From Amphiscolops sp. MND2022 (Eukaryota): a stretch of 64,000 nt of DNA. The notes beneath the pieces are model-generated. The model saw only the letters and a list, made by a program, of their open reading frames with translations, had not been told where the DNA came from and ran no database searches. Within the stretch, counting starts at the first letter, position 1. Every line of letters begins with the position of its first letter. Made by a program: the position numbers and the translations under genes. This document shows, piece by piece, positions 36,503-54,505 of the stretch. The stretch spans positions 8,620,001 through 8,684,000 of the forward strand of contig OZ076409.1 in assembly GCA_964187785.1 (NCBI GenBank), in the 5' to 3' direction.

Positions 36503-39500
36503 ATGTTCCATTACTCGGGCGATCTTTGGGAAAAGTGCTGTGAATGGATGGAGTTGATAGACTTTACGGCCCAGCAAAACTATCCAATTCCCTCCGTTTC
36601 CAAATCGAAGAACGAGAAAGAATTTCAAAGTGCTCTCAAAGATGGTTCAGCCCTTTGCTATTTACTGCACCACATCGACCCCGATTCCATTGACAAGAAA
36701 AATATTCGGCTCAACTGTTCAGCGTCGCGAGATCAATCCATCCACAATGCCCAAATGTTTTTGTCATCATGCGAGGACTATTACATGCAAGGGTGTTAAA
36801 ATAATAATTGTCGGGAAAATAATTAGCAATAAATAAATTGCAATTATTCATTTTTGACCAAAAGCAACACAACTTATTTAATTTTGAAGGCAATTATTGT
36901 AGCAAAATAGTTTTTGGTGTAGTTTACGCGTATGCGTAGAAATCCTAATGGGATTACCGATTTTGGAACAAAAATTGTTGCCAACCAATCTCTAAGCCGA
37001 GGTGTTCTTGCGCTCAAACAGGCCTTTTTGGGATGTACAAACTGCTTGTGAGATGAGAAACCAAGAGGCTGACAAAATCAATGATTTCGGGGGATGAAAG
37101 AATTCAATGAAAGAATTCTGGGGAAACAATTGCGCAATAATTAATTGTTTTCGGTTTGACAATAATTGAATCATGGGTTCAATAATTTATTGTTTCTCCT
37201 GAATTCAACACTCTTGATTGCATGACACTCACTTGTGACCTGTTCGAAGCATCGATTCTGTACGAGTGCCAACAACTGGACGCTGTGTTTTTGGCTCTGA
37301 GTTCTCTCAGCAAGACGATGCGATTCGCGGAAGTCATGCTCGAGAAATGCCACAATGTCCCTATTTTTGAAATACACGAGGAATTCAATGGTAAATGATT
37401 TGGCGGAAAAATGGTATTCTTGGAGTACTGTTTTCCATCTCGGAAAAGGATGAGAACCAATTTGCGTTGTTGATTTTTAGGATTCGAAAAAAATGCACTC
37501 GTACCTTTTCCCCTGACCTTTCAATGAAAATTACATGTTTCTGAAAAACTGTCCATAAGATTTCTATAAAATTTAGCACAGTCATTCTACACCCAAAGGA
37601 GGCTCCTACGTGCGCAATGGCATCAAAAGTTTATGACTAGGACTTGAGAAAGATTTAGTCCAAAAATGACCGAAAAACTGCCATTTTTTGGTCTTTTTTC
37701 GATTTTGTCAAAATCTGTCTATACGATTCGAACGAAATTCTCTTACAATCATTCTACGCCGCATTAGGGTCCTATGTGTGCAATGACATGAAAATCGTAT
37801 GACTTGGATCTGAGAAAGAATGCCAAAGATAGTCCAAAATAATGACCAAATGAAAATAAAGGACGTAATTTGTTTTCCAATATTTTAATCCGTTTCCGAC
37901 TCTTTTACCGCACATGCGGCTCCGGTTCCAAAAGCAAAAATCTACCTTTGTTGAAAGTTTGAAGACTAAATTACTGACTCTAATCTAAAATTCACTCAAA
38001 TTTCAATGGAGTTTTTGATTCACATTTTGCTTTTAAACACGTTTTTAGTCTGCGCATTTTTTATGTTCCCCTCTTCGGGATTTCCGTGTTTCAACTTTAA
38101 GATCGACAATTTTGAGCTTAGAGGGTCCTCAATCCCCGGCTTTTCGGCACTGTGCAATTTTTTAGCGATTTTTGATTTATTTTTTCAAAAATCACCATTT
38201 CAATTTTTGACGTTTCAAGTTTAAAAAGCGTTTTATGGATCCTTTGGATAATTTCCGCACCGAACTATTTCCAAAAAAATTGAGTCACCCTGAGCATAAT
38301 TTAAGGGCAGAGTTTTTGAGTCTTTAGTGGGGCGCCGACTTTAGAAGGTCTCGTCTTGTTAATCCTTCAAACAAGCAAACGCTTTCAAATATCTTTACCG
38401 CCAAACAAACAGATGAAGGAGAGGATCACATGTACCATCTAGCTGGATCCCACACCGAATCCACTTTCAATTCGGATTACATGGCATGCACACAGTTTGA
38501 GCTTTCGACGGATGACAGTGTCTACGACAGCATGATGAGTCAGTATCTCAGCACGACTCTTGCCAACACATCTGCCTCAGTCGACTCCTCGGCATCTTCT
38601 TCGATCTACGTCACCATGTCTCTATCTGACCATTCCAATGTCACGGGTTCGAACCCCATTCTCGCCGAATTATTAGAGAAGGAATCGGGTTTTATTCAGC
38701 TTCTATCGGAACTCCTTCAACTTTACAAAATAAAACTGATTAATATATCGAGTGAACATTTCGACCCAATTTTTTGCGGTGACTTGTTTGACAACATGAA
38801 GGATCTTCACGAAGAAATGAGGAGGCAAATGAATGTTGCGGGTTCGACTTCAAAGGATGAAATTGAAAATGTGTGCGATGTCTTTCAGAAAAACAAAATC
38901 AAGATAGCATCCGTGTATTCCAAATATTTCACACAGATCGATTCCAGTGTTTCAAAGTTGCAACAACTTCTGGACGAGAATCCCTTTCTCCGAGATATTT
39001 TTGAGCGCATTAAAAAAGAGGCATTTGAAGATTCTCAGTGTAAAGCATTCGATCTTTGTGTTGTGCTTCGGGTTCCGTTTCAACATGTTCTGAGGTACCA
39101 ATTGTTTTTTGATCGTTTATGTGAGAAGGTTATTCCTTCAGTAGCTCCTGGAAGCAATACTCGGCTGGTCAACACCTTGGAAAAGACAGCGGAAATGATG
39201 AAAGACTTGAATGAACATTTTAACGAGTGCAAACGCAACATGGAATCTTTACAGTATCTCTCCGTCAAGTTCAAAGATGTATTAGATTCCAGTGATCCCG
39301 AAGAAGAAGCGAAATCTTTTGGGAAATTTCTGAAAGAAGAAGAATTTCCGAAAGTAAAAGTGGGGAAATCATTTTGGAGTAAAACCGATGTACTTCTTTT
39401 CCAGAAAGCTGTCGTGTTTCACAATAAAACTAAACATCTAGTGCTTAAATTAGACACAAGTGTGGTAGATACGCACAGTAAACCAAATGTTATGACCTTT

Positions 39501-40505
39501 AGAGGAGATTCAGATTACAGAACAGTGGAATTGGTCATCAAAAATCAAGATTCATTCGATACGTGGAAAAATTTGGTTGACAAAGTTTTGGAAGTAAACT
39601 GGCTTAAAGAAAGCAATCACCACAAAGTAACTCTGGAATCTTTCGAAGACGTCGCTTTCTGTGTTGTTTCTGGGAAGATCTTGAAGGGTAGTTACAGTCA
39701 GGGTTACCAATGCTCAAAGTGTAAAGCGTGTTTCCTCGATTTGACAAGTCTCCGAAACTCCAAACCTTGTCAGAGTTCCCCGGCTACTTCTTGCAGCAAT
39801 CTTCCTGCTCTGAGAAGCTTTTTTGAGAACCACAGTTTCACAGAAAACAAAGCCCAAGTCCGCCCAACCTCACCGACTATATGCAAGGATCCTGAAAACA
39901 TAGATCTTACATCTATGACCAACCTTATTCTCGGGAGTCTCGATGAACTCTCAGAGTATCCCTGGTTCTGCCCAATCAAGAACCGAAAAACTTCCTACAA
40001 AGTTTGTTCACTGCTCCCTGAGAACACCTTTTTGGTTCGAAGAAGCGAAAACGATAGAAACTCGGCCGCTCTCATGATCAAACATAAAACGAAAGTTCAC
40101 AATATGAAGATCACTGTTTGGCCTCAAACTGGTTGTTGCGGGCTGACACAACATTTGACCTTCTCAAGTATCCCAAAACTGGTCGAGAACTTCCAAACCA
40201 ATTCTCTTTCAACCTGCATCCCAGAATTACAGACGACTCTCATTTTTCCATTCAAGGAAGGCTTGAAAAGGATGAAAAGCTCGTTGGATTCTTCAAAACA
40301 TCAGAGTTTAGCTTTTTTGAAGAGATCAGCCTCCGTTTGTATAGAGAACAATTGTTGTGAGTTGCAACCGGGTGACATTGTGATTGTTCAGTTGCAGCAA
40401 AATGATCCCAAATCTTCCAGAGTTGAAGGGTTTGTCGAAACAAAAGCAGGATCTTTCAAATCACATGAATTTTATCTTCCGGCTGACATTCTTGAACCAA
40501 TTTAG
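36503..40505 (+). CDS. vav: Vav-like Rho/Rac guanine nucleotide exchange factor (CH - acidic - DH - PH - C1 - SH2 - SH3-like), divergent
   Basis: Segments 36503-36787 (DLWEKCCEWM...ALKDGSALCYLL, CH), 37225-37390 (DLFEA...VFLALSSLS) and 38413-40505. The last has DH (VPFQHVLRYQLFF), C1 (GYQCSKC) and SH2 (YPWF...TFLVRRS...FSSIPKLVENFQ). Intron 37391-38412 is GT-AG, phase 1. Confidence 0.85.
36788..37216. mobile_element. hAT-type MITE inserted in the vav CH-domain coding sequence
   Basis: TIR CAAGGGTGTT / AACACTCTTG; TSD ATTACATG / ATTGCATG. Confidence 0.8.
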
Positions 40506-40944: not shown

Positions 40945-41434
40945 AAGAAGTTAAATGCAATGCCAGTGAACAAATTTTGATTGATCTCGTCGACGTTTGA
41001 TTGGTTAATCTGAATTAGTGCTTGTACGAACTATAGCAATTTTGGCTGACGCGTTTTGTAACCAAATACGTCTGGCTGTCACGCTGACAAGTTTTTCCCT
41101 TTTTTTCGCCAGATCACAGAGTAGACGATTAATTATCCACTTTTTACAGACTTAACACTTAAAATCTAAAACATACCCTTTTGTGATTTTCATATTTTTT
41201 TGATCTAAAAAACCAAATGATATCAACTGGTCCCTATTTGGGAGTTTTTTCGGCACTGTGCGACTTTTTTCGAACATTTTTAAACATGATAAAAACATGC
41301 ACAAACGAGCTATCAGCACGTGTCATCATCCAAAATTTTTGTTGCAAAAGAGTCAGTTTTAGTCTAAATTAGCAAAGTACTTGAATCGTCCAAAGGTGCT
41401 AGGAAAAAAGTTAACATGTCACTTTGATTGAACA

Positions 41435-42130
41435 TTTAACAATCGCTTTTTACTAGATTTCTATTCGTTTCAACTTTCGATGCGCAGGGCGATTGTTGGG
41501 GTAAATGGATATATTTTGTTTTTAAAAGTGACTAGTGGATATTTCTAAAAAAAGAACAAAAAAAAGTCTATAAGAAAATGAAAACTCAATTTTAAAGAAC
41601 GATATTTACTGACCAAAATTATTAAGTAACAAACAGCAACTTACATTTGGCTTGATGGATGATGTTATGGCTGTGATAGTTTTCGGTTTCTGAAGATACT
41701 TCTGCAGGTGCAAGAAACGAATAAATAATTAATCCTGCACTGGGTAAGAGTGGGGCTTTTGATGAATGTTAATAAAGGAGCAGCTGAATTGGGCGCATAA
41801 AATAATAAGAGCAGCTTTAAATAAGGGGCAGCTGAAATAAGGGGGCGGCTGAACAATTGGGAAGCTGAATCAGACTCAACAAAATATTTATTACTGCGAG
41901 GCAGCTGGATTTTTAGAAACGACCACAAGGCTTTTTAAAATGCACACTGCCTGGAACTGCCTGGATAATTGTTTGTAAAATATTTTAAAAAAGTAAAATG
42001 TGCACAACAATTGTTACAATGTATATTAAGCAACGCTGTTAATATTTTTCAATATATAGATGTGTATATGTAACGTGTATGAAGTCTCACATGTATTAAA
42101 AAATTCATTTCCTGTTTACTGTCCGCTATA
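41435..42130 (-). repeat. 3' LTR
   Basis: Direct repeat of 53482-54177; same length, no difference seen by eye. Confidence 0.95.
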
Positions 42131-42145
42131 CTACCCTCCCCCGTG
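42131..42145 (-). other. Polypurine tract
   Basis: Minus strand CACGGGGGAGGGTAG abuts the 3' LTR. Confidence 0.85.
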
Positions 42146-42170
42146 AAAGGCTGCGTCCCCGCCAGCCAAA

Positions 42171-43241
42171 TTACTCGAACCAGTCCGACATGTGTGAGTC
42201 ACAATCCTTGCAGGTCCGTAAGTTACGACGGGCCCGGCGAACACCTGTCATACCGCAACACTGGTATACTTTGTTGAGCCGGGGATCCGTGAGGACGTTT
42301 TTCGCTTCCTTAAGGCAGGGGACCAGTTGGGACACTTCGGCTGGGATGGAAGGGTTCTTGTCGGGGTGTACGAGTCTTAAAAGATGTCTAGCATGACGAT
42401 TGATCTTTTCGACATCGGCTGTAGGTGGCAGGCCAAGTATATGAAAGAATATGTTCTCATCTGCGAAATCGAGTTCAGGAGTATATGTGGAAAGTTGATA
42501 AATTAGCATGTCAGTGGTTAGATGGGCATCTGAAACCCTGTTGGCGGCTAGTTTAAGGTTAGAGAGTTCTTCGCTTTGCTGGAGACTGTGTTGCAGCAAA
42601 GAGCTGTTTTCGTCGCTGAGGGCACTGAGGCGCTTCTTCAGGGCGGCTATTTCACTGTCTTTTTCGGCGAGGGCGACGACTTGAGAAGCAATGTTGGTTT
42701 GTAAACCAGCGAGCTCGACTTTGCTTCATGAATTTCCTTTTCCTTTGCCTTCCGAAGAGTCATTTCCTCGCAAAGGAGGTCGAACGTATGCTCACACTCG
42801 ATGCGAGCCTTATTAGCTGCTGCACGGGCTTCTTCAAAACCCTTATTGAGTTCGCCAACCGAAGAAAACTCTGATACTAAGAGTTCCATGCTGTCGTCAG
42901 CGTCGAGGGACGCATCCACTGCTACATCGCAGGTGTCCACTATTAATTTAGGGGGTACTGGCGAGCAATCACAGATTGCTGGAGGGGGAGGGCAGTCCAC
43001 TTCCACGCTCAGGCTGTTACTGCTTGGAGGAGGAAGCCAGATTTCCGTAGCTGGTCGAGCAAAGCAACGATTACTTGAATTAATTTTTTGTAGCACAACA
43101 GTTTGTGTAGCGGGGTTTATTCTCTTGATACGATAATCGTCTTTGTCCAACAAGCGGACTACATATCCCTCTGCCAGGGGCTGCACGCGGCCGCTGCTGA
43201 GGAGGAAGGGCGCTGGAACTGGAGCTGCTGGAAACTGGAAC
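42171..43241 (-). CDS. Accessory coiled-coil + J-domain (DnaJ, HPD) protein, split by a 1-nt frameshift near 42720
   Basis: Upstream frame runs to ...EKEIHEAK. The -1 frame opens at 42725 as KVELAGLQ... (coiled coil), then FFHILGL...LVHPDKNP...EAKNVLTDP..Y and a CKDC tail. Acceptor TTTCAG|G at 43242/43241. Confidence 0.75.
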
Positions 43242-43362
43242 CTGAAACAACAAAAAAACTGATTGCACCGATTACACTTTGTACGGAAATCCTACTTAGG
43301 ATGCGGAAACGCATCTGCTAGACACTAATTGTTTAAACAATTAGGAAAAAACTTAATTGCGG

Positions 43363-43737
43363 ACACGGAAACGTGTGTTGTGAGGCACTAGTTGCGTAGC
43401 GAAGCAACTAGGAGAAAAAGACAGCTTAGCGAAAAGAGATTCACCACGGAAACGTGTATCAATACAGGCGCTAGTTGCGTAGTGAAGCAACTAGGAAGGA
43501 AAAGACAATCTAAGGGAAAGTAACGGAACACGGAAACGTGTAAAACAGGCACTAGCTGCGTAATAAAGCAACTAGGAAGGAAAGGCAACCTAGAGGAACG
43601 TAAGTAACACGGAAACGTGTAGAACAGGCACTAGCTGCGTAGTAAAGCAACTAGGAAGGAAAGGCAACCTAGAGGAACGTAAGTAACACGGAAACGTGTA
43701 GAACAGGCACTAGCTGCGTAGGAAAGCATCTAGGAAG
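43363..43737. repeat. Tandem array of about five 80-bp double-hairpin units
   Basis: Each unit has CACG-GAAA-CGTG and CTAG(T/C)TGC-N8-GCAACTAG. Confidence 0.85.
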
Positions 43738-46152
43738 GGAAATCCTAAGTAGTTGATAAAGAAGCTGAAATTGACAGTGAGACAGAAATGTGCTAAACAA
43801 TTAAATGATGTCGAAGTAGACTCATAAGTAGGCGCACTAATATTAGGATAAACACGTGGTGGAAGTGTAGGGGCGTTGGGTGCAGTGTAATTAGATGGTT
43901 TCGGTTCAGCTTGACGAATGGTTTCGCGAGCCAGCAAAATCAGTGCGCGGAATTCAGCGTCCGTCAAATACAAAAATGGAGAATTGGTCAAATCATACTC
44001 CGCGGTAATTGATTCGACTATATTAATGAATCTACCGGAAGTAGCCCGGAAAAAGCGTTGAGGATTGGTAAAAAGACGCTGCCAATGACGTCTAAACAAA
44101 GTAAAACTTATAGAAAATGTTAAAATAGACATTGTAATGGACAATGACGAAAGTAAAAAAGCAGTACGGGTGGGTAAATATGACTGTAAAGCTGCTGATG
44201 TGGCCGGCGAGATCGAAGAATAATACTTAGCGATTGGCTCTGTCAGTTGATCTAGAGTTTCCGGCGACATGTGTTGGACGTCAGGTAGTTCGGCTAGTTC
44301 CATTCGTAGACTGCCAAGAACTGACTGACGAGCTTCACTCGTAGAATATGCCTGAAATTCGGCGCTACCAATGGCGGGTACATGCGCGAAGACTTGATTC
44401 AAAGACGGTGTCAGCTCAATCGACGCAAGAAAAGGCTCCGGCCGGGTCTCGCAAAAATCCATGTCAGGATGAAGAACCAGTTCACCCTGGTTGAAAGACA
44501 GTGTACTCGAACAGCTAGGGCGTATGACACACGCCTGACAGGTGATAGTAGAGATAGAAAGGCCGTCAATTTGGCTATCGTTTTTGAATTTGAGGGTGGG
44601 AGACCGTGATATGACGTGGTACATCCCATCCGCCAAATAAAAAGCCTGAGGAGCGTCGGGTAAAAGTACTGCGCGGACTTCGCAATTGCGTAAGGCGGGA
44701 ACATCGTAGTTATAGAACAAGGATCCTAAGCAAAGAAGAGTTTCATCGGTTGTTGTTGAGAAGCCTTTTCTACATAATTTGATACGATTGTTGCCCGAAC
44801 ATTGCTGCAGCGTGTTAGCACCGAGCTCTGCAAATCTACTATTGTCAGTAGATACTGCCAAAAAAGGGTTCGCAAAATTGAAGAGCGACGCAGTTTTCTG
44901 GTCATTGTTGGGCTGATACAGAGGCGTGGCATGGTAAATGTCAAACGTCGACGACTTTGAATTCATTGGGATCCCAAGAATGACAGATATACCACGTGGT
45001 ATCAAAGTTACTTCGAGTACTAATTGTATCTCATAGTATATTGCCTCAAAACCAGGTCGAATAGCTGGGGACAGTTTGGTGCCTCGCTTTACTTCGTCAT
45101 CTGCTAAGTCTTTGACAATTTGCGCCACTTGTTGAGGCAGAAGAAACTGAGGTGTGATGTAGCCACTAGCTAACGAGGAAATGGTGGAGTAGAGCGAAAT
45201 GCGGTAAGCGTAAAACGCTGCACGGTACGACTTGAGATGAGTGTAAAGTGTCCCTAGCTGATAGACGTAATTTCGCAAGAATTGCTGAAGGCTAAGGTGA
45301 CGAATAATCACTCTATCACACTCAAGGCTAGTCGCAGCCAAGTAGCGAGTAGCATTAACTAGGTAAAACTCCATTTGTTGGAAGCGGAGACCGACACTTT
45401 CTTTTAGTTTCTGGACACTTTCCTGGGTCTGTTTAATCTCGTTTCCTAGAAGGAAGAAATTCTTGTCGTTTCGAGTTTGAACACGCTGCAGTGTATCAAC
45501 TATTTCTTGCTGTGTGCTCATTATGCGTTCCACGTCGCGACTCAGATCTTCATTGGTGTGACAGAGATTAAATATAGAAAGCGCACTACAAGCGGCGTCT
45601 TTGATTGGTTCACCCAAGACCATTCCGGCACCTGCTGCGATTGCAGCAATAGCGGCAATTGCTCGACGTGGTCGTGCGATGTCATCAGATTGTCTAACAG
45701 CTGGTGGAATGAAAGAATTCACAACTTCCAGAAGAGTGTCTTCCTCTTGTTGAGCTGCTGCCAACTCTGTTTGCAGGAAATTGACTCTTGTCACAAGTTG
45801 TTGCAGGAGGAGGTCATAGGTGTCATTAACGTCTGTAAACTTGCAGTTTGTATTGATGTACATACCTCCGATGCTTCGAGGGGCTGTCTGGAAGGCATTG
45901 ATCATGTTAATGGCATTGGTAATGTTGATTAGAGGCATCTTGGGGAAGGGAGAGAACACGCGGACTTTGCTTTCGCTCTCCGAGGTAACAGCTTGGTATT
46001 TGAACACAAACGCTGCACCTTTCTTGAATACGGGTTTTTCCAGGTCATCGTTGAGGTGTGTTGTGAACTGCACATCCGCAAAGATCAGGACCGACCAACG
46101 GACGAACAGAAAGAGAAACCAGAAATGTTGAGAGTTTGGAAAGTAGGAAATC
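43710..46152 (-). CDS. env: Envelope glycoprotein, class I F-type fusion protein
   Basis: In-frame hydrophobic signal FWFLFLFVRWSVLIFA upstream of the called ORF. Furin site RPRR is followed by fusion peptide AIAAIAAIAAGAGMVLG, a heptad region, a Cys-rich block and TM AFLLSSLSITMSILTFSISFTLF. Confidence 0.85.
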
Positions 46153-46396
46153 CTGAAAAACAGAGGAGCCTTGTTAGGCCATTGGTGATGGGAAATGACC
46201 TGGAGAGAGAAATAAAATGCAACTATTTGAAGTTATTTCTTTTTTGTATAGTTTTTGGAACGTTTGGTGGAATGTGGCATGCTGTGCAGTGGCGGCGAGT
46301 TGAAATCGGTTAGTTCAGAAGGTATTGAGGAATTACACAGGGGTTCCGCCAATCGCTGTGTGCGTGTACTTGCGCGGAGATTGTATGGTCTGTTTA

Positions 46397-47140
46397 TCAT
46401 ATCTCAAAACTGAACAGCAGCGTTTTCAACGATGTTTCGGGATTCGTTTGACAAAGGTGAATGGGATGCTGGTGCTTGACGATAGCTTGGGTTGTCGACT
46501 GAGAAGTTGCGGGAGTGGCCATCGTCTGAACTCCAGGAGATTGAAAAGATTGGGAATGCTGATTACCGGAGAGGAAAGCGGGAGTTCGGGTTTGGGTCGG
46601 TGACTGAGCATTGTGGCTAGTTAATTGTGGCGTTGGAGTAGTCTGGTGGTTCAGGTGAGCAGGGCTGTGGAGATTCACAGGCTGCAGTGGTGGCTGTTGA
46701 AAATGCATGCAGCATCGATGCGAGGTTTCAGGTGGTGTGGTGTTCAAGTCGTTATTCCGTGTTGGGACATTGGAGTGAACTGGTTTTGTGGGCTGGGTTA
46801 AGCTAGTATTTCGAGTAGGCACATTTGAAGTAGCTGGTTTTTCGCAAAAAGGTTTCAACCTATCGTAGTGAACGATCAGCTCTTTGGACGTAGACAATTC
46901 TCTTATCTTGTATGTGACCTCATTGAAACAGTCAAGTATCACATATGGACCACGCCATGGGTTGTGGAACTTGGTTGTTTGGCCAACTGGGACCACTGGT
47001 GTGTGGAGCAACACTTTCTGTCCCTGTTCGTAGGTAGGACCATGGATCTTCTCGTTGTAAATGGCGTTGCGACGTTTTTGGTTTTTATTAATGTTGGCTC
47101 GCACTAGTTCGAAAGCTCTTTGGAAGGCCAATTTTCGATT
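46397..47140 (-). CDS. Integrase C-terminal (GPY/F) segment, in frame with pol after an internal TAA
   Basis: KFHNPWRGPYVI...VHYDRLKPF; same frame as pol (...TDFV*NRKLAFQ). Confidence 0.85.
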   Translation of the reverse strand, partial: NRKLAFQRAFELVRANINKNQKRRNAIYNEKIHGPTYEQGQKVLLHTPVVPVGQTTKFHNPWRGPYVILDCFNEVTYKIRELSTSKELIVHYDRLKPFCEKPATSNVPTRNTSLTQPTKPVHSNVPTRNNDLNTTPPETSHRCCMHFQQPPLQPVNLHSPAHLNHQTTPTPQLTSHNAQSPTQTRTPAFLSGNQHSQSFQSPGVQTMATPATSQSTTQAIVKHQHPIHLCQTNPETSLKTLLFSFEI

Positions 47141-50100
47141 TTATACAAAATCCGTAGGCGACATTGGTTTTTCGGCTTCAGGTGCAGGGTGCATCAAATC
47201 GATTGGCAAGGAAATTTCTCGCCCATGAACAAGAAATTGAGGCGAATATCCGGTTGATTCATGTACAGATGACCGGTAGGCCATCATTACGGAGGGTAAC
47301 TGTTGGGACCAGTTACTTTGTTCAGCGTTCACGCATTTTGCTAGCATGTTCTGGATTGTTCGATTCATTCGCTCGATCACTGCATTAGACTGGGGCCTAA
47401 AAGCAGTTGTTCTTGTTTTGTCAATGTGAAGGCTTGTCATGAGCGTCTGGAACAACTTGGACTCAAAATTACGTCCTTGATCACTATGTATGCTGTAGGG
47501 GCAACCAAATCGACAGATCCAATGTTCGATAAGAGCGGTAGCCGTTGTTGTAGCTTGCTGATCTGGCAAGGGAATTGCTTCATACCATTTTGTGAAATGA
47601 TCCCCGATCAACAGAATTACTTTGTTTCCATTCGAGGCCGGCAATGGGCCCATGAAATCGATTCCAATGTGGTGAAAGGGATAACTAGCTTTCCACTCTA
47701 CAAGGGAATGACGATGTGTTTTGGGAGGATCCGAGCGTCGCTGACATTCGGAACAACGTTTTATGAAAAGCTTGATATCCTCTTTGAAACCAGGCCACCA
47801 AAAACGCTGTCGAACTTTCTCCATCACCTTGGCTAAACCTAGATGTCCACTGGTAGCGGAAGAGTGCAAGTTTGTTAGGATATGTTCTACCAAGGTACGG
47901 GGAACAATTTGCTGTAGGTACGGAAGTTCACTTCCAACTGGTTCATACCGTCGACAAAGAACGTCATTGGCCAGATATAAACTGTGGAATTGATTGTACA
48001 GCTTCCATGCTAACTCGGGACTTCCTTGTAGGTCGTTATTCCGCGGCACACGACCCCTGCGAACCCATTCTTTTACGATCTTCAGGGCCTCGTCCTCATC
48101 TTGAGCATTGCGGACATCAATGTCCGCATGCACTGGTTCATTATCTTTAGCGGTTTCTACGGGTGGGCCTTCGCTCTCAAGTGAAATTGATGGAGGCAAA
48201 TAAATAGTTATACATACATTGGATCCGTCAAAGACTTCTCGGATGAGTCTGCGAACCAAATCCCAGTCAAGTTTATCATTTCCACAGCCTATTTGAGGCA
48301 TACTAATCTTTAGGACGTCGTTCGTTTCAGCATGGCTACGCATGTGTTCCAGAGAAGCTCGAAGTGAAGTATATGTTGGCTTTTGGTAGTAACGTTCCTT
48401 AGTCAGCAAGTGATACAGGAAACGGCCGTCACCAGGTAATGGTTGTACCCAAAGTGGCACAGTTTGCTTTGATAAGTCCTCTGGATACTGTGCTGGGAAC
48501 TTCCTTTTGAATGATCGGGCTATTCCAGAACTCATTTTAAAATCAGCTGAGATACAGTGAGCTAGGGACTCCGAAGAACTGAACAAATCGCCCTTCACCT
48601 CGCGATACTTGACAATGCCTGTTTCTGTAATGACTAGTTCTTCTTGTAGAGGCTTTTCTTGTGGTTGCTCGTGTTCGAGAAGTTCGCCGGTTTTAACTTT
48701 GCTGTGATTATTAGCTTTTTCCTTGAGTTCAATGATAGCTTGGAGTGGTATTGATGCTGTATCTCTAGGCAATAGGTGAATACTGTAGTTAGATTGTGCG
48801 TTGGGCCATTCCTCGTCATTGTTGCAATTCTTCGTCTTTGTTGCACCTGGGACTCCTGTTCGGCATTCTTGCGTTAATTGGACGGATTCAGTTGGTATTC
48901 TGGACAGACTGTCGGCATGTCCGATGGATTTGCCTGGTCTATGTTGCACTTCGTAATCAAAAGCTGCTAGTTTTTCAATCCAACGTGCAATGAGACCGTC
49001 GGGGTCCTTGAAATTGTGTAACCAGCGAAGTGCACTGTGGTCTGTGACAATTTTGAATTTTCTACCGAGTAGGTAATGTCGGAAGTACCGAGTGAAATGG
49101 ACCATTGCGAGAAGTTCTCGTTTCGTCGCTGAGTACTTTGATTGGGATTTGGAGAATGCCTTTGATGCATAGCAAATAGCACGTTCCTGGCCATTTTGTA
49201 CTTGGGCTAGAACGGCTCCCATTGCTAGTTGGCTGGCATCCGTGTAGAGGATGAAAGGATCTTCCATTGTTGGAAAGGCTAAAATTGGTGTTGTGAGGAG
49301 TCGTGCTTTTAGATCTTCAAACGCTTGCTCTGCCTCAGTTGTCCACTTAAAAGGCGAGTTGGTTTCACTCGCTTTATGCAAGGGACGAGCGATTTCAGCG
49401 AAGTTTTTGATGTAACGTCTATAGTAGGAACAAAGGCCCAAGAATGACTTCACCTGGGTCTGGTTAATTGGGACCGGAAACTCTTTAACGGCTGCAATTT
49501 TTGTGGGATCAACTTGAAGGCCTTCTTTGCTGATGACATGGCCCAAGAAGTGGACTTTGGTGCGGAAAAACTCGCATTTTAGGGGGTTTATTTTCAAGTT
49601 GGCTTGTCTAAATCTGCCTAGAACTTCCCTGACTCGTTCTAAGTGTTCCTCCGGGGAAGCGGCAAAGATGATACAATCGTCAAGGTAGGGGACTGTTGTT
49701 TTCCAGATAAGTTTCGCCAAAACGATTTCCATTAAATTTTGGAACGTCGGTGGACTGTTTGTGAGTCCCATCGGCATTACAAGCCATTTGAAGGAACCAA
49801 AAGGTGTGCTGAAAGCAGTATAATCTTGACTTGATTCGTCTAAGGGCAGCTGATAAAATCCCCAACTCATGTCTATAGTGGAAAAGACTGAACTTCCATC
49901 TAGAGTGTCAAAAATTTCTTCAATCGAAGGGATTGGCCAACAAGACTTGATTGTTTGACTATTCAATTGTCTGTAGTCAATGACGAGGCGGAGTTTTCCG
50001 TTTTTCTTCGGGACTAGCATGGCGGGTGCACTGTAAGGGCTGTGACAAGGAGCTATTAACTTCTTGTCCAGGAACGCGTCTAATTTCTCTTGGAGATCCT

Positions 50101-51148
50101 GTTTATAGTGGAGGGGCATTCTGCGATTCGGAATTTTAATCGGCTTTGATCCGGGGTATACGTCTATTTTGTGTGTTGTAGCTTCGCAACGACCAATGTC
50201 CCATTGGTTTTGCGAAAACACATCTTCGAATTCGTAAACAAGTTCTGCGAATTTCTGTTTTATTTTGAATGGAATTTCCGGATCAACTCCATCCACTACA
50301 TTTTTCAAATCGTACGATTCGTCCTTTTCGTCTATTTTAGACTTCAAGCTTTTTGTTTCGGTTACAACGTTTTGTATGGGTAAATCAGGGATTGCTTCTG
50401 AAGTACCCAAAGTTGTTTTCTCATACAAGATCAGTGGCTCTTCTCCAGAATTTTCGATCGTCACCGGGATGTTTTCCTCAGCAAAGTTGAACAAAATACT
50501 TGGTGCCACTGCTTCTTTTGAGCCATCGAACCGTTCGTGCGGCTGGAAAATTGCTACACCCTCATTCAATGGGCGTTTCCAATCCTTGATGTGCGCTGGC
50601 ACAATCATTGTATGTCGTGGTGGTACCGAAACTGTCTCGGACACCACCACCCTGAACACAGTTGTCTTAGCATCTGTGAGCTGACGATGATACAGGGGGA
50701 CTGTCGTCTTTTCATCCAGACGCAGAATATCTTGGGAAAACAACGGGTCGCATTTATGAGTTTTGAGGAAGTCTAAGCCGAGTAGACAGTCAGCTTCTGC
50801 TTGCTCCAGAACGTGAAACGAATGTTCGTAATGTCTCGGACCGATTTGCAAAGGTAGTTGCACAATGCCGCATGTTACTATAGGTTGTTTGTTGGCTGCT
50901 ACTAGCTTCGTGTCTGACGGTTTTAGCTCTAATTTCTTCCCGTTCTTCAATTTCCCAAATGCATCAGAACTCAGGCAAGACACACTTGCTCCACTATCAC
51001 ACACAGCCTCAATCACCGTATTAAAAATGGATAATTGGACGAATACACTTCTGTGATCCACCACAGAGTTAAGAGTCTGAATTTGTGGGCCTCGGTTTGT
51101 GGTCTTGTCTGCGCTCTGACCCGCTAGCGTAGACATTTCTAGTTTAAA
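47141..51148 (-). CDS. pol: Pol polyprotein: protease - RT - RNase H - macrodomain - integrase
   Basis: DSGA protease; LRLVIDYR, MPMGL and YLDD (RT); YTDAS and TDHSAL (RNase H); GDLF...GCGND (macrodomain); HHCC zinc finger and D,D,E integrase core. Confidence 0.95.
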   Translation of the reverse strand, partial: FKLEMSTLAGQSADKTTNRGPQIQTLNSVVDHRSVFVQLSIFNTVIEAVCDSGASVSCLSSDAFGKLKNGKKLELKPSDTKLVAANKQPIVTCGIVQLPLQIGPRHYEHSFHVLEQAEADCLLGLDFLKTHKCDPLFSQDILRLDEKTTVPLYHRQLTDAKTTVFRVVVSETVSVPPRHTMIVPAHIKDWKRPLNEGVAIFQPHERFDGSKEAVAPSILFNFAEENIPVTIENSGEEPLILYEKTTLGTSEAIPDLPIQNVVTETKSLKSKIDEKDESYDLKNVVDGVDPEIPFKIKQKFAELVYEFEDVFSQNQWDIGRCEATTHKIDVYPGSKPIKIPNRRMPLHYKQDLQEKLDAFLDKKLIAPCHSPYSAPAMLVPKKNGKLRLVIDYRQLNSQTIKSCWPIPSIEEIFDTLDGSSVFSTIDMSWGFYQLPLDESSQDYTAFSTPFGSFKWLVMPMGLTNSPPTFQNLMEIVLAKLIWKTTVPYLDDCIIFAASPEEHLERVREVLGRFRQANLKINPLKCEFFRTKVHFLGHVISKEGLQVDPTKIAAVKEFPVPINQTQVKSFLGLCSYYRRYIKNFAEIARPLHKASETNSPFKWTTEAEQAFEDLKARLLTTPILAFPTMEDPFILYTDASQLAMGAVLAQVQNGQERAICYASKAFSKSQSKYSATKRELLAMVHFTRYFRHYLLGRKFKIVTDHSALRWLHNFKDPDGLIARWIEKLAAFDYEVQHRPGKSIGHADSLSRIPTESVQLTQECRTGVPGATKTKNCNNDEEWPNAQSNYSIHLLPRDTASIPLQAIIELKEKANNHSKVKTGELLEHEQPQEKPLQEELVITETGIVKYREVKGDLFSSSESLAHCISADFKMSSGIARSFKRKFPAQYPEDLSKQTVPLWVQPLPGDGRFLYHLLTKERYYQKPTYTSLRASLEHMRSHAETNDVLKISMPQIGCGNDKLDWDLVRRLIREVFDGSNVCITIYLPPSISLESEGPPVETAKDNEPVHADIDVRNAQDEDEALKIVKEWVRRGRVPRNNDLQGSPELAWKLYNQFHSLYLANDVLCRRYEPVGSELPYLQQIVPRTLVEHILTNLHSSATSGHLGLAKVMEKVRQRFWWPGFKEDIKLFIKRCSECQRRSDPPKTHRHSLVEWKASYPFHHIGIDFMGPLPASNGNKVILLIGDHFTKWYEAIPLPDQQATTTATALIEHWICRFGCPYSIHSDQGRNFESKLFQTLMTSLHIDKTRTTAFRPQSNAVIERMNRTIQNMLAKCVNAEQSNWSQQLPSVMMAYRSSVHESTGYSPQFLVHGREISLPIDLMHPAPEAEKPMSPTDFV
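51106..51148 (-). promoter_or_regulatory. -1 programmed ribosomal frameshift signal
   Basis: T TTA AAC in the gag frame directly before TAG, a 6-nt spacer, then stem TGTCTaCGCT/AGCGcAGACA. Confidence 0.8.
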
Positions 51149-52359
51149 TGTTCCCTTTTGGGAGCCTTGCATTCATTCTGGAAATGACCGACTCTCAAAC
51201 AATTGAAACAAGCTTTGCACTCCTTCGTTGTATGATTTTTGCGTGTGCAACGCTCGCACGGCTTCCGATTGTTTTGCGTGTTGTTATTGTTGCCTTGTTT
51301 CTTGGGATGGGGGGAATCTTGGCGATACTGTTGTTTTTGTGTTTTGTCAGATCTGCCTGCGTTATTTGGTCGTTCGCGTCCTTGTGACGACTGAAATCGT
51401 ACTGACTGGCCACTCCGATTGGAATCATTACTCTGCGATCTCGAGTGATCATTTCTGTTTGATGATTTTGTGTCTCGTCGTTGATGGAAATCATTATTGG
51501 ACCGATACGTTGACGACTGAAGTTCAGTTTGTAATGATCGAACAAAATCAGCCATAATTTTGGACGCTGATGGCTCCGCTTCAGAAGAAGTACTAACTCG
51601 GTTAACTGTTTGAGCGGCTTGGGGGTTTCCGTTCTCAATCTCCAGGAACGAATTCAGCTCCATAGCCAAGGACAAAGCATCATCCGCTGTGGCTAGCTTG
51701 GCTTTTCGGAGCTCCCATCGAAGCGTTTTGTCGCTTAACCCTTCAATGAAGCACGTCAGAACTACCGGATCAATCATAGCAGGATGATCCCGATATGCAC
51801 GACGCGCCAGCGTCCGAACGTCACATAGGAAAGATGAAATATCTTGGTTGGGTTGCTGCTTCGCGGCTTTCAATCTTGCTTTCAGAATATCGCCATTAGT
51901 TGTGTAATTCTGGCGGAACGCGTCAACGAGCATATCGAAGTTAGTTTGTTGTGATGGAGACAACGTAGTGTAGAAATGCAAAGCATTTTCTCTCAATCGC
52001 AACGCAAAATAATGTGGTCTGTTATCGTGTGCGTTCGAATACCAGCCTGAGAGAAGTGCTGCTGTGTTAAATTGTTGCAGGTAATCTTCGAAATCACCTT
52101 TTCCTGTGAAAGACTCTGGCATCAGACATGACGGAAGCGGGGCTATGTATGGAACACTTGTTGGGTTTTGTCTACCGCCAGGCAGAGTGAAAAAGGAAGC
52201 TGTTGGGGTTGTACTAGTGTTAGGAGTTGTAGAACCCACGGTAGGTGCTTGTGCTGGTGCTTGGGAGCTACTTGCACCACCACTAGTAACTGGGGTTGTA
52301 GTGGTATTGGTTACCGCTGTCGAGGTGGCCGTTGTGGGGGTGCTTGGTTGAGTGCTCAT
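51139..52359 (-). CDS. gag: Gag (406 aa from the first ATG)
   Basis: PESFTG...F..Y capsid-like region; two CX2CX4HX4C knuckles (CERCTRKNHTTKEC, CFNCLRVGHFQNEC). Confidence 0.9.
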   Translation of the reverse strand: MSTQPSTPTTATSTAVTNTTTTPVTSGGASSSQAPAQAPTVGSTTPNTSTTPTASFFTLPGGRQNPTSVPYIAPLPSCLMPESFTGKGDFEDYLQQFNTAALLSGWYSNAHDNRPHYFALRLRENALHFYTTLSPSQQTNFDMLVDAFRQNYTTNGDILKARLKAAKQQPNQDISSFLCDVRTLARRAYRDHPAMIDPVVLTCFIEGLSDKTLRWELRKAKLATADDALSLAMELNSFLEIENGNPQAAQTVNRVSTSSEAEPSASKIMADFVRSLQTELQSSTYRSNNDFHQRRDTKSSNRNDHSRSQSNDSNRSGQSVRFQSSQGRERPNNAGRSDKTQKQQYRQDSPHPKKQGNNNNTQNNRKPCERCTRKNHTTKECKACFNCLRVGHFQNECKAPKREHLN

Positions 52360-52400
52360 TGTATTTGAACGCTTAAAGTCTACGTTAGGTCTAGAACGTT

Positions 52401-52799
52401 TCACATGCGATCCATTCGCAGCGGACCAAAATTGAGACTAGGTGGTTTGCAGTCGGGATAGACCAAATAGAATGGATTCGTTACGTGTATTGCTAGAAAT
52501 TGAATATGAGAAGCCCAAATATTGGATAATTGAGGGAAAAAGGACGCACAGGAAGCTTTTACACTTGCATTGTTATCAACACGACCATACGGGAAAGTTG
52601 AACAAACGTTTCGATGTTGCCAATTGTGGATAGCCTCAAGACGCAAATGAATCGACAGTTCATGTGCCGTAAAACGACGTTCTGGTTGATGCGATAATGG
52701 AATTTTGAAAAGTTTCACTTGGCAGAAGTAGCAAGGAATAACGAAGTTTTGAGGCGGTGTGTTTGACAAAACGGAAACAGGTATGCTAAAAGTATACAT
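52401..52799 (-). CDS. Pre-gag accessory ORF 2 (132 aa, CYFC and His motifs)
   Basis: ATG-initiated; packed 10 nt after ORF 1 and ending 41 nt before the gag ATG. Confidence 0.5.
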   Translation of the reverse strand: MYTFSIPVSVLSNTPPQNFVIPCYFCQVKLFKIPLSHQPERRFTAHELSIHLRLEAIHNWQHRNVCSTFPYGRVDNNASVKASCASFFPQLSNIWASHIQFLAIHVTNPFYLVYPDCKPPSLNFGPLRMDRM

Positions 52800-52809
52800 T
52801 AGGCCGCTC

Positions 52810-53079
52810 CTACAGAGACGTATAGTCCACTCTTTGGGTTTGAAGTGCTTTACAAGTTATATTTATCTTGTTGATTTCGTACGACATCGCACAAAGGGCT
52901 AAAACGGTCAAGAGAAGCGCAAAACAGAGGATCAAGAGTAGAAAACTTAAAAAACAGGGCGTGAATATCGGTCTTTCACGTGTTTCGCTGTAAGAGGGCG
53001 GAGGACTTGATGGTCGAAGCGGTCGTTGGGGAAAAACGTACAACGGTAGGTGAGAATGCGTATTGTGAGCACAAGGCAT
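52810..53079 (-). CDS. Pre-gag accessory ORF 1 (89 aa, PPxY + single TM helix)
   Basis: ATG-initiated; PPPSY followed by a hydrophobic run of about 22 residues, FLSFLLLILCFALLLTVLALCA. Confidence 0.55.
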   Translation of the reverse strand: MPCAHNTHSHLPLYVFPQRPLRPSSPPPSYSETRERPIFTPCFLSFLLLILCFALLLTVLALCAMSYEINKINITCKALQTQRVDYTSL

Positions 53080-53462
53080 ATCAACAAAAAAATTCGCGGC
53101 GGTTATTAAAATTTAGGTTATCAAAAGAAAACGGAACTATTTTGATAGAAATGTTACAAAAAATTGGCTACTGTTTGTTTTATGACAAGCACTTACCGTG
53201 TAACTTCTTAAAACTTAAGGGCATTGGGTCAAATGTGCCATTTTAAAGCCTGAGACACGCCGAAGCGGAAAGACACAGCATTGAGCTGGAAAACTAGGCA
53301 CGGACCATGTCCGGATTGGGAATCTTATGGGCAACACTGGCGAACCAGGAAATGGCACATTTCAAAAAAATTTTTGGATCGGGTCTAGGACTAAGAATGT
53401 TTTGATGGGGGTTCTAAGTTACTTTAAATTTTTTTTTGTAAAAAAAACTTCTTTTCACAAAT

Positions 53463-53480
53463 ATCCCACTCCTGTCACCA
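53463..53480 (-). other. Primer binding site, probably tRNA-Leu
   Basis: TGGTGACAGGAGTGGGAT, 1 nt from the 5' LTR; resembles the complement of the metazoan tRNA-Leu 3' end (..ATCCCACTCCTGACACCA) with one difference. Confidence 0.8.
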
Positions 53481-53481
53481 T

Positions 53482-54177
53482 TTTAACAATCGCTTTTTAC
53501 TAGATTTCTATTCGTTTCAACTTTCGATGCGCAGGGCGATTGTTGGGGTAAATGGATATATTTTGTTTTTAAAAGTGACTAGTGGATATTTCTAAAAAAA
53601 GAACAAAAAAAAGTCTATAAGAAAATGAAAACTCAATTTTAAAGAACGATATTTACTGACCAAAATTATTAAGTAACAAACAGCAACTTACATTTGGCTT
53701 GATGGATGATGTTATGGCTGTGATAGTTTTCGGTTTCTGAAGATACTTCTGCAGGTGCAAGAAACGAATAAATAATTAATCCTGCACTGGGTAAGAGTGG
53801 GGCTTTTGATGAATGTTAATAAAGGAGCAGCTGAATTGGGCGCATAAAATAATAAGAGCAGCTTTAAATAAGGGGCAGCTGAAATAAGGGGGCGGCTGAA
53901 CAATTGGGAAGCTGAATCAGACTCAACAAAATATTTATTACTGCGAGGCAGCTGGATTTTTAGAAACGACCACAAGGCTTTTTAAAATGCACACTGCCTG
54001 GAACTGCCTGGATAATTGTTTGTAAAATATTTTAAAAAAGTAAAATGTGCACAACAATTGTTACAATGTATATTAAGCAACGCTGTTAATATTTTTCAAT
54101 ATATAGATGTGTATATGTAACGTGTATGAAGTCTCACATGTATTAAAAAATTCATTTCCTGTTTACTGTCCGCTATA
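53482..54177 (-). repeat. 5' LTR
   Basis: Direct repeat of 41435-42130; minus-strand AATAAA at 53934-53939; consensus donor AT|GTAAGT at 53686-53693. Confidence 0.95.
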
Positions 54178-54505
54178 AACATATCATTTGAAATTGGCAT
54201 CGTATTCAACTGAGGATGAAGGTAATGGCTTCACGGTTCAAATCACTCTGCGTGTAAGCGAAACTTTCAGATTTTAAATATGGTATTTTGGGAGAATAAG
54301 AACTTCTTGCTTTCCTTCATTCCAATGTCTTTCAAACTTCCCAACTTAAAATAATCCTTATAGTTCACATGCATTGCAAAATGTACCTTTGTCATCAAAT
54401 GTTTCTTTTATCCAGGTACCATTTCAGCTCTGTTTTGTTCATCATAGAGATAGCGAATATTGTTGTGAATTTAATTTTAGTGATTTATTACCAGGGGGTT
54501 ACGAT

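Follow-up and report, generated by a model that had tools for sequence, protein, structure and literature searches.

Env-carrying Ty3/gypsy elements with an F-type or gB-type Env have been described across metazoan phyla as elements with three open reading frames (ORFs) (Chary & Hayashi, eLife 2026, PMC13524379). The main text of that paper names 'ancient' and 'insect' errantiviruses and gives only RNase H-like and mini domains for the bridge between RNase H and integrase. Long terminal repeat (LTR) retrotransposons with additional ORFs (aORFs) have been described too, in bdelloid rotifers (PMC5408684), in Cer1 with its CERV protein (PMC10309623) and in plants (PMC7264820). Here we analyse a Ty3/gypsy LTR element of 12,743 bp on the minus strand of a 64,000-nucleotide stretch of DNA, referred to as the window, from Amphiscolops sp. 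MND2022 (assembly GCA_964187785.1, contig OZ076409.1, positions 8,620,001 to 8,684,000). The element occupies positions 41435-54177 of the window.

We consider it probable, with the functions proposed below included, that the element belongs to a recently active, multi-copy, env-carrying Ty3/gypsy ('errantivirus-like') family within a wider clade that keeps a fixed nine-part plan, comprising two small genes upstream of gag (ORF A and ORF B), a 3' gene with a J domain and a macrodomain inside Pol, and that the window copy is a damaged member mobilised by its relatives. The nine parts are LTR, primer-binding site (PBS), ORF A, ORF B, gag, pol in the -1 frame, env, 3' J-domain gene, and polypurine tract (PPT) with LTR; in the window copy a hairpin array lies between env and the 3' gene (Table 1). 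An earlier note, made from the letters of the window, had listed this anatomy, and every part of it was found, on the minus strand. Direct LTRs with a short target site duplication (TSD), the placement of PBS and PPT, the order protease (PR)-reverse transcriptase (RT)-RNase H (RH)-integrase (IN), and a gag with a capsid-like domain and CCHC knuckles assign the element to Ty3/gypsy, and a third ORF downstream of pol with features of a fusion glycoprotein assigns it to the env-carrying members of that group.

With the errantiviruses, as presented in the main text of PMC13524379, the element shares the LTRs, gag, a PR-RT-RH-IN pol, a downstream env, here putatively F-type, a tRNA PBS and near-identical copies as a sign of recent activity, but it adds a TARG1-type macrodomain in the bridge and three conserved genes. 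The words 'macro', 'DnaJ', 'J domain' and 'accessory' are absent from this main text, with the supplementary element lists not covered. Conserved genes beyond gag, pol and env are what the element has in common with the rotifer, Cer1 and plant elements, and 'DnaJ' is absent from the accessible text of these three reports. The combination of a PPxY membrane protein, ORF B, a J-domain protein and a Pol macrodomain was not found in the published literature searched, curated repeat libraries and supplementary tables not being covered, in agreement with the earlier note, which had known of no described element of this kind. Its statement that errantiviruses carry gag, pol and env only holds roughly for published surveys, but extra ORFs in other LTR elements and macro ORFs in fish endogenous retroviruses (ERVs) have been published.

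Complex retroviruses (lentiviruses, deltaretroviruses, spumaviruses) offer an analogy in outline, as the element likewise has accessory genes beside gag-pol-env, probably spliced RNAs for their expression, and mosaic genomes shaped by recombination. However, the resemblance is confined to the level of organisation. The element carries the ordinary Ty3/gypsy-type set of Pfam domains, its Pol is Ty3/gypsy-type and its Env putatively F-type, the accessory genes are unrelated, and two of them are placed upstream of gag. The description as a 'complex' env-bearing Ty3/gypsy lineage with accessory genes is supported.

The part of pol between RNase H and the integrase zinc finger aligns over the whole domain with human TARG1/OARD1 (PDB 2eee/4j5q; E 1.6e-34, query 22-158 on chain 10-147), roughly half of the aligned residues being identical. 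The generic Pfam Macro model matches pol weakly (E 0.0034, below its cutoff). By membership the domain is a predicted ADP-ribosyl hydrolase domain of the TARG1/OARD1 type. The window copy and the macrodomains of two diverged families, F2 and F4, that were fetched whole all retain the LTK lysine and the GCGxD aspartate, which we take to be the TARG1 catalytic residues K84 and D125. In both families the domain has the same position in pol, with 60% identity in F2 and 47-70% in F4 (a frameshifted copy), and the comparison with F2 gives a proportion of non-synonymous differences (pN) of 0.25 and of synonymous differences (pS) of 0.70. Human TARG1 (C6orf130) is a stand-alone cellular protein of ~150 aa, whereas the domain of the element, which it resembles by full-length alignment and the two kept residues, is embedded in a retroelement polyprotein of 1645 aa. 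The macrodomains of coronavirus nsp3 (Mac1), alphavirus nsP3 and hepatitis E virus are likewise ADP-ribose-binding or -removing domains in a viral or mobile genome, and RNA-virus macrodomains counter PARP-dependent antiviral responses. These belong to the replicase of RNA viruses, whereas the TARG1-type domain described here is fused into the RNase H-integrase interval of a Ty3/gypsy Pol. Macro-domain ORFs are present in fish epsilon-like ERVs according to a review (PMC4977317, citing Basta et al. 2009). Unlike such a separate ORF of a vertebrate retrovirus, the domain found here lies inside Pol.

The earlier note had also described a coiled-coil/J-domain ORF at the 3' end. This ORF is present, but a longer gene of ~373 aa extends beyond it, of which it forms the 3' half. 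What appears as two frames of 214 aa and 184 aa in the window copy is a single frame in 12 of 16 copies, 366-393 aa long; a private 1-nt deletion near 42719 has split it in the window copy. In an alignment with relatives of 38-48% identity the N-terminal stretch GRVxxLAxGxxVRLLDxxDYRVxRINPxTQxVxLQKINS is conserved, followed by WLPPP, CDC, the coiled coil and the J domain, and the C-terminal tail is Cys-rich and basic (CCGxxGVRRARRxLRTCMDCD). The J domain carries the HPD motif (VHPDKNP), its profile matches J-domain structures and Foldseek returns a J-domain fold. The AlphaFold model of the protein (mean predicted local distance difference test score, pLDDT, 67.5) consists of a beta domain (44-80), a disordered stretch, a helix (131-268) and the J-domain fold. 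A Spt5-KOW-like identity of the beta domain was considered and dropped, as the Foldseek rows were weak with E above 0.1. Polyomavirus T antigens are viral J-domain proteins, and the parallel would lie in a J domain that the virus itself encodes and whose HPD motif could serve to recruit host Hsp70; the relationship is limited to this domain, which in the element is C-terminal and follows the beta domain and a helix of ~140 residues.

Within the family the ratio of non-synonymous to synonymous substitution rates (dN/dS, NG86) of the 3' gene is 0.17, with dS up to 0.8. The 3' protein is 48% identical to that of F2 and 33% to that of F4, and the comparison with F2 gives pN 0.35 and pS 0.84. When a 48%-identical relative was searched against the genome, 141 matches were obtained, and open frames of 330-400 aa with identities of 25-38% are frequent among them. 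Of 1.84 billion cluster representatives, only 57 are related to the N-terminal 249 residues at E<=0.001. Two library relatives of the 3' gene match the window genome at best at 45% and 47%, respectively, and therefore appear to come from other assemblies.

These observations bear on whether the macrodomain and the J-domain gene could be recent captures of host genes by one family of this genome instead of an old trait of the clade, which we regard as quite improbable. The closeness of the macrodomain to cellular TARG1 would fit such an event, as would the few library representatives that match the N-terminal part of the 3' gene and the word-indexed protein search, in which fusions of pol and macro appeared only in 'ena' records (6 hits). 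However, both modules are found at the same positions in F2 and F4, where the RT is 78-85% identical to that of the window family, the accessory proteins are 33-60% identical and synonymous sites are saturated; the window genome moreover holds many further diverged 3'-gene families, and the two library relatives match it at no more than 45-47%.

F2 and F4 have the same layout as the window family, macrodomain included. Upstream of gag both carry, in the same order, a homologue of ORF A (PPPSY or PPPRY, followed by a transmembrane (TM) segment) and a homologue of ORF B. Of 12 further short 5' pieces, 4 contain an ORF A homologue with a TM segment (PPxY in two, LPxY in one, neither motif in one); L041 and L042 are loci at which both PPxY and TM are present. 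ORF A is 45% identical to its F2 counterpart (pN 0.36, pS 0.79) and has no Pfam match. For ORF B the identity to F2 is 53% (pN 0.255, pS 0.71), and the genome search gave 69 matches from 100% down to ~33% identity, mostly open frames. The predicted fold of ORF B has a predicted template modelling score (pTM) of 0.69. Searches with ORF B gave no Pfam match, no usable Atlas match, a best Foldseek E of 6.3 and a best VIA-align Z of 3.6, and these blanks mean that no match was found, not that there is evidence of a new fold. For 41 of 57 ORF B places a match to the 3' gene lies 4-16 kb downstream on the same strand, a count that compares 57 of the 69 ORF B rows (the 12 omitted being mostly second fragments of listed places) with 78 of the 141 rows of the 3' gene.

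One diverged lineage shows two tandem ORF B paralogues upstream of gag (L046, L047, L048, L050; C13:8.72 Mb, C3:35.83 Mb, C13:17.54 Mb, C1:86.96 Mb), the upstream one resembling ORF B of F4.

It is exceedingly improbable, and already largely refuted, that the three extra ORFs (A, B and the 3' gene) are open by chance, are in decay, or are host-gene passengers without a role. ORF A and ORF B lack a Pfam match, ORF B has neither a structural nor an Atlas relative, and its changes within the family are all non-synonymous, as such an explanation would lead one to expect. On the other hand, the frames are open in most copies (ORF A 16/18, ORF B 14/17, 3' gene 12/16), the three genes occur in the same order in families with 33-53% protein identity, pN is far below pS between families for all of them, and ORF B folds with a pTM of 0.69. 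Purifying selection is seen on every extra gene, be it within the family or in comparisons between families. The earlier note had named absence of the extra ORFs from other copies, or lack of purifying selection, as what would speak against it; what was found is their retention, under purifying selection, in the sister copies and in two deeply diverged families.

Several observations nevertheless weigh against the reading of a conserved and functional nine-part plan. Within the family ORF A is under moderate constraint only (dN/dS 0.54, NG86), and PPxY is absent in one diverged homologue and replaced by LPxY in another. ORF B shows no synonymous and only non-synonymous changes at few variable sites (NG86), and its constraint therefore rests solely on the comparison between families. 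The window env itself has no Pfam match and falls short of Baculo_F, which only 3 of 16 relatives reach. Neither env nor the 3' gene has an in-frame ATG before its conserved N-terminal part in the window family. Splicing and expression of the element genes are predictions throughout.

The env gene of the sister copies encodes a protein of 808 aa with a hydrophobic segment at the N-terminus and a TM segment at the C-terminus. Its single furin-type site, RPRR, is followed directly by AIAAIAAIAAGAGMVLGEP, and further cysteines are conserved. The protein has 115 homologues with 42-100% identity, and the best match to Pfam Baculo_F among the 3 aligned relatives mentioned above has an E of 3.4e-08. 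The nearest Atlas clusters are Baculo_F, Fusion_gly and Gypsy (scores 0.92-0.95), and the search against PDB gave a weak 'fusion protein' match (E 0.006). On these relatives and sequence features the protein is accepted as a putative F-type Env. Its dN/dS within the family is 0.13 (NG86; dS up to 0.17), and the env genes of relatives do have an ATG before the signal peptide.

Env is unnecessary for retrotransposition within germ cells, and an ordinary intracellular germline retrotransposon could carry env and the extra genes as non-contributing relics of an old viral ancestor, in which case no life cycle of the complex-retrovirus kind would operate today. It would be in line with this that env of the window family has no ATG ahead of its signal-like segment and that the gene is broken in 6 of 16 copies. 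We nevertheless consider it unlikely, as relics would drift toward a dN/dS of 1, whereas env is at 0.13 and the 3' gene at 0.17; the furin site, the fusion-peptide-like segment and the TM segment of env are intact, and the plan is retained across diverged families.

Gag matches Retrotrans_gag with 32.6 bits (Pfam cutoff 24.1), and its translation shows two C-x2-C-x4-H-x4-C motifs, the Pfam zf-CCHC match being below its cutoff. A motif search of gag for the late-domain motifs PPxY, PTAP and YPxL found none. The dN/dS of gag within the family is 0.40 (NG86). The Pfam positions in pol are Asp_protease 42-141, RVT_1 387-547, RT_RNaseH 636-738, Integrase_H2C2 1090-1147 and rve 1165-1260, and the intact family pol has 1645 aa (sequence P0130). 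A slippery UUUAAAC heptamer is found at the same place in F2, and Gag-Pol would be made via -1 slippage at this heptamer. In intact sister copies the pol stop TAA is followed immediately, in the same frame, by the open frame of env (window equivalent ~46233).

Besides the predicted major donor in the leader of the window copy, strong leader donors are predicted in F2 and F4. Polypyrimidine-AG acceptors are predicted immediately before the env frame (~46199) and before the 3' gene (~43234-43241), with acceptor-like tracts before the 3' gene in all three families (window family, F2 and F4). The short ORF at the strong leader donor is out of phase for env. Env and the 3' gene may thus be expressed from spliced subgenomic RNAs that join the leader donor to the acceptor before each gene. 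An ATG/GT overlapping the PBS was considered as a phase-0 donor that would provide an in-frame start for env as well as for the 3' gene. The window family and F2 have it, F4 does not, and the idea was rejected as unsupported.

The tandem array between env and the 3' gene has 5 units, of which an automated repeat listing reported just 3. Its 237-nt core folds better than all 200 shuffles (z -3.7), and all 15 sister copies have the hairpin motif, with 2-5 units each. No such motif was found in either F2 or F4, and Tandem Repeats Finder (TRF), applied to F2 alone, gave no array. As the motif is specific to the family, the array was not kept as a conserved RNA element.

The assembly that holds the window is chromosome-scale and 1.07 Gb in size, and the LTR search gave at least 42 matches in it. 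Sixteen copies were fetched in pieces, and each piece was analysed separately. Fifteen of these, complete or almost complete, are colinear with the window copy over the entire element, so that sister copies with the same layout, for which the earlier note had proposed to search, do exist; no copy is named here as fully intact. An internal deletion has left the 5.5-kb derivative L013 (C7:5172160-5177667) with the LTRs, ORF A, ORF B, gag and the beginning of pol; the remainder of pol is missing, as are env and the greater part of the 3' gene, which makes it a possible non-autonomous form. The copies are mosaics. For one group among L016-L029, identity to the window copy amounts to 97.5-98.4% across gag, pol, env and the 3' gene up to its middle, but only to 82-84% in the half with the J domain and to ~91% in the LTR, whose first 61 nt cannot be aligned. 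This points to probable recombination between two lineages with a breakpoint within the 3' gene.

The two LTRs of the window copy align with 0 mismatches over 696 bp, as the earlier note had seen when it called the insertion recent. LTR-pair identity is 99.0-99.7% in 13 copies and ~95% in 2, and the window copy is the youngest insertion examined. The sister copies have the same LTR termini with their own, differing 4-bp TSDs in all 6 cases with both ends located, 15 copies having been examined. The unusual termini are therefore genuine.

Compared with 13 sister copies the window copy has 31 private differences, of which 26 are internal and four disrupt or alter genes. Within the integrase it has a private TAA at 47141-47143, where TAC stands in the two sister copies read at base level. 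The frame is open through this site in 11 of 14 sister copies, and the window base occurs in 0 of 13 compared copies. The env stop of the sister copies (43806-43808) is TCA in the window copy, which adds 32 aa. This lost stop and two 1-nt deletions (near 46502 and near 42719) are absent from all 13 compared copies. The window copy is young yet defective.

It could be argued that the window copy is an intact, potentially infectious provirus whose apparent defects are assembly errors or are bypassed by programmed recoding such as read-through or frameshifting. Its LTRs are identical, its ORFs are all long at first sight, and the env ORF that follows the pol stop in frame in intact copies makes an unusual recoding conceivable. 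We judge this very improbable. The integrase TAA, the two deletions and the lost env stop are all private, and the private indels lie outside long homopolymers, which makes an assembly error unlikely. Two private substitutions are common to both LTRs, and the lineage therefore diverged before integration. If the 26 internal private changes had arisen after integration, ~3.2 LTR differences would be expected, and the chance of zero would be ~0.04; the window copy thus most likely carried its damage at the time of integration and owed its mobilisation to the proteins of other copies. The damage would have been present in the RNA template or have arisen in the course of reverse transcription, with intact relatives providing the proteins. 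The description 'potentially infectious' in the earlier note accordingly fails for the window copy, with its integrase nonsense codon, frameshifts in the pol tail and the 3' gene, and lost env stop. A very young insertion that was probably dead on arrival also advises caution against equating identical LTRs with an active copy.

For the clade with the conserved plan, the following division of labour is proposed. The Pol macrodomain would strip host (PARP-type) ADP-ribose marks off proteins or nucleic acids of the element, as viral macrodomains do, and the J-domain protein would recruit host Hsp70. ORF A is proposed as the supplier of the late domain, because it carries PPPSY whereas gag is without PPxY, PTAP and YPxL; it would engage NEDD4-type ligases and ESCRT at membranes with the putative F-type Env and so promote particle release and cell-to-cell transfer. 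ORF B may be a small regulator. Taken together, the extra genes and the presumed ADP-ribose-removing domain look like a home-grown toolkit for handling the host cell. It is from domain identity alone that we infer a 'host-modulating' role.

The clade would thereby hold four additional stable modules in elements that are described as three-gene elements. Three of them have parallels in unrelated viruses, namely the macrodomain (PARP defences), the J domain (Hsp70 recruitment) and PPxY (NEDD4/ESCRT budding), and for ORF B none is known. Questions that thereby become testable are whether retroelements are restricted by ADP-ribosylation, how complexity of the retroviral kind arises outside Retroviridae, and whether late-domain function can pass from Gag to a membrane protein of its own. 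A bolder proposal, which we put forward tentatively and hold to be rather doubtful, is that an invertebrate-type Ty3/gypsy lineage independently evolved a 'complex retrovirus' set consisting of an anti-defence Pol macrodomain of the TARG1 type, which would remove host ADP-ribosylation from proteins or cDNA of the element, a J protein that hijacks chaperones, a separate PPxY membrane adaptor that stands in for the late domain of Gag and acts with F-type Env in budding, and a new-fold regulator. If this were true, ADP-ribosylation would be an old animal host defence against retroelements, and such elements would still move between cells as enveloped particles.

The PBS of the window family is identical in F2 and F4. 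The genome carries sequences with T arm, acceptor and CCA that are complementary to it, with 1073 matches for a 15-nt version of the PBS complement and 1185 for a 22-nt T-arm version (one mismatch allowed), mostly in tandem arrays. The primer may be tRNA-Leu, a name that no tool confirmed. At places matching the PBS complement, ARAGORN found no tRNA gene (4 places) and Rfam gave no match (2 of them). The sequence resembling a tRNA 3' half (T arm and acceptor) is present in more than 1000 copies, with arrays for example at C8:35.59-35.64 Mb, C11:5.99-6.02 Mb, L037 and L039, and CCA is encoded in both of the places whose bases were read.

Table 1. Features of the element in the window, with the number of copies in which each frame is open.
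Feature	Position	Strand	Description	Open frame in copies
TSD	54178-54181 (upstream side), 41431-41434 (downstream side)		AACA, same 4 bases on both flanks	
5' LTR	53482-54177	-	696 bp; minus-strand reading TATAGCGG...GTTAAA	
PBS	53463-53480	-	TGGTGACAGGAGTGGGAT; one base after 5' LTR	
Predicted major splice donor	53191-53199	-	ACG/GTAAGT; leader, upstream of ORF A; scored with an approximate weight matrix	
ORF A	52810-53079	-	89 aa; N-terminal PPPSY, one TM segment, short tail with NIT	16/18
ORF B	52401-52799	-	132 aa; conserved PCYFCQ ... H..QH (histidine pair) and C-terminal helix	14/17
gag	51139-52359	-	406 aa; Retrotrans_gag and two CCHC knuckles	13/16 (one further copy with gag deletion)
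Slippery heptamer	51142-51148	-	U UUA AAC (TTTAAAC) in gag frame, directly before gag stop TAG	
pol (-1 frame)	47141-51172	-	PR, RT, RNase H, macrodomain, IN zinc finger and core; ended by private TAA	
Macrodomain	48200-48610	-	TARG1/OARD1-type; between RNase H and integrase zinc finger	
pol remainder	46397-47140	-	integrase C-terminal domain and tail, cut off by TAA; further private 1-nt deletion near 46502	
env	43710-46232	-	putative class I F-type fusion glycoprotein; signal-like segment, RPRR furin site, fusion-peptide-like segment, C-terminal TM	10/16
Tandem array	43363-43763	-	5 units with hairpin ACACGUUUCCGUGU (14-nt motif), 79-84 nt apart	
3' gene	42171-43291	-	beta domain, WLPPP and CDC motifs, long coiled coil, J domain with HPD (42264-42449), Cys-rich basic tail	12/16
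J-domain ORF of window copy	42171-42725	-	3' part of 3' gene; Pfam DnaJ 40.5 bits (cutoff 27.8)	
PPT	42131-42142	-	GGGGGAGGGTAG; abuts 3' LTR	
3' LTR	41435-42130	-	696 bp	

Outside the element the window contains further long frames on the plus strand. Three of them, at 18551-22882 (1443 aa), 24676-25785 (369 aa) and 26217-27767 (516 aa), gave no Pfam match at E<=0.001 and possibly belong to other mobile elements. An uninterrupted frame of 725 aa at 38328-40505 (+), which ends ~930 bp from the element, is Vav-like with RhoGEF, C1 and SH2 domains. The intronless state of this frame is unusual, and it could be a retrocopy.

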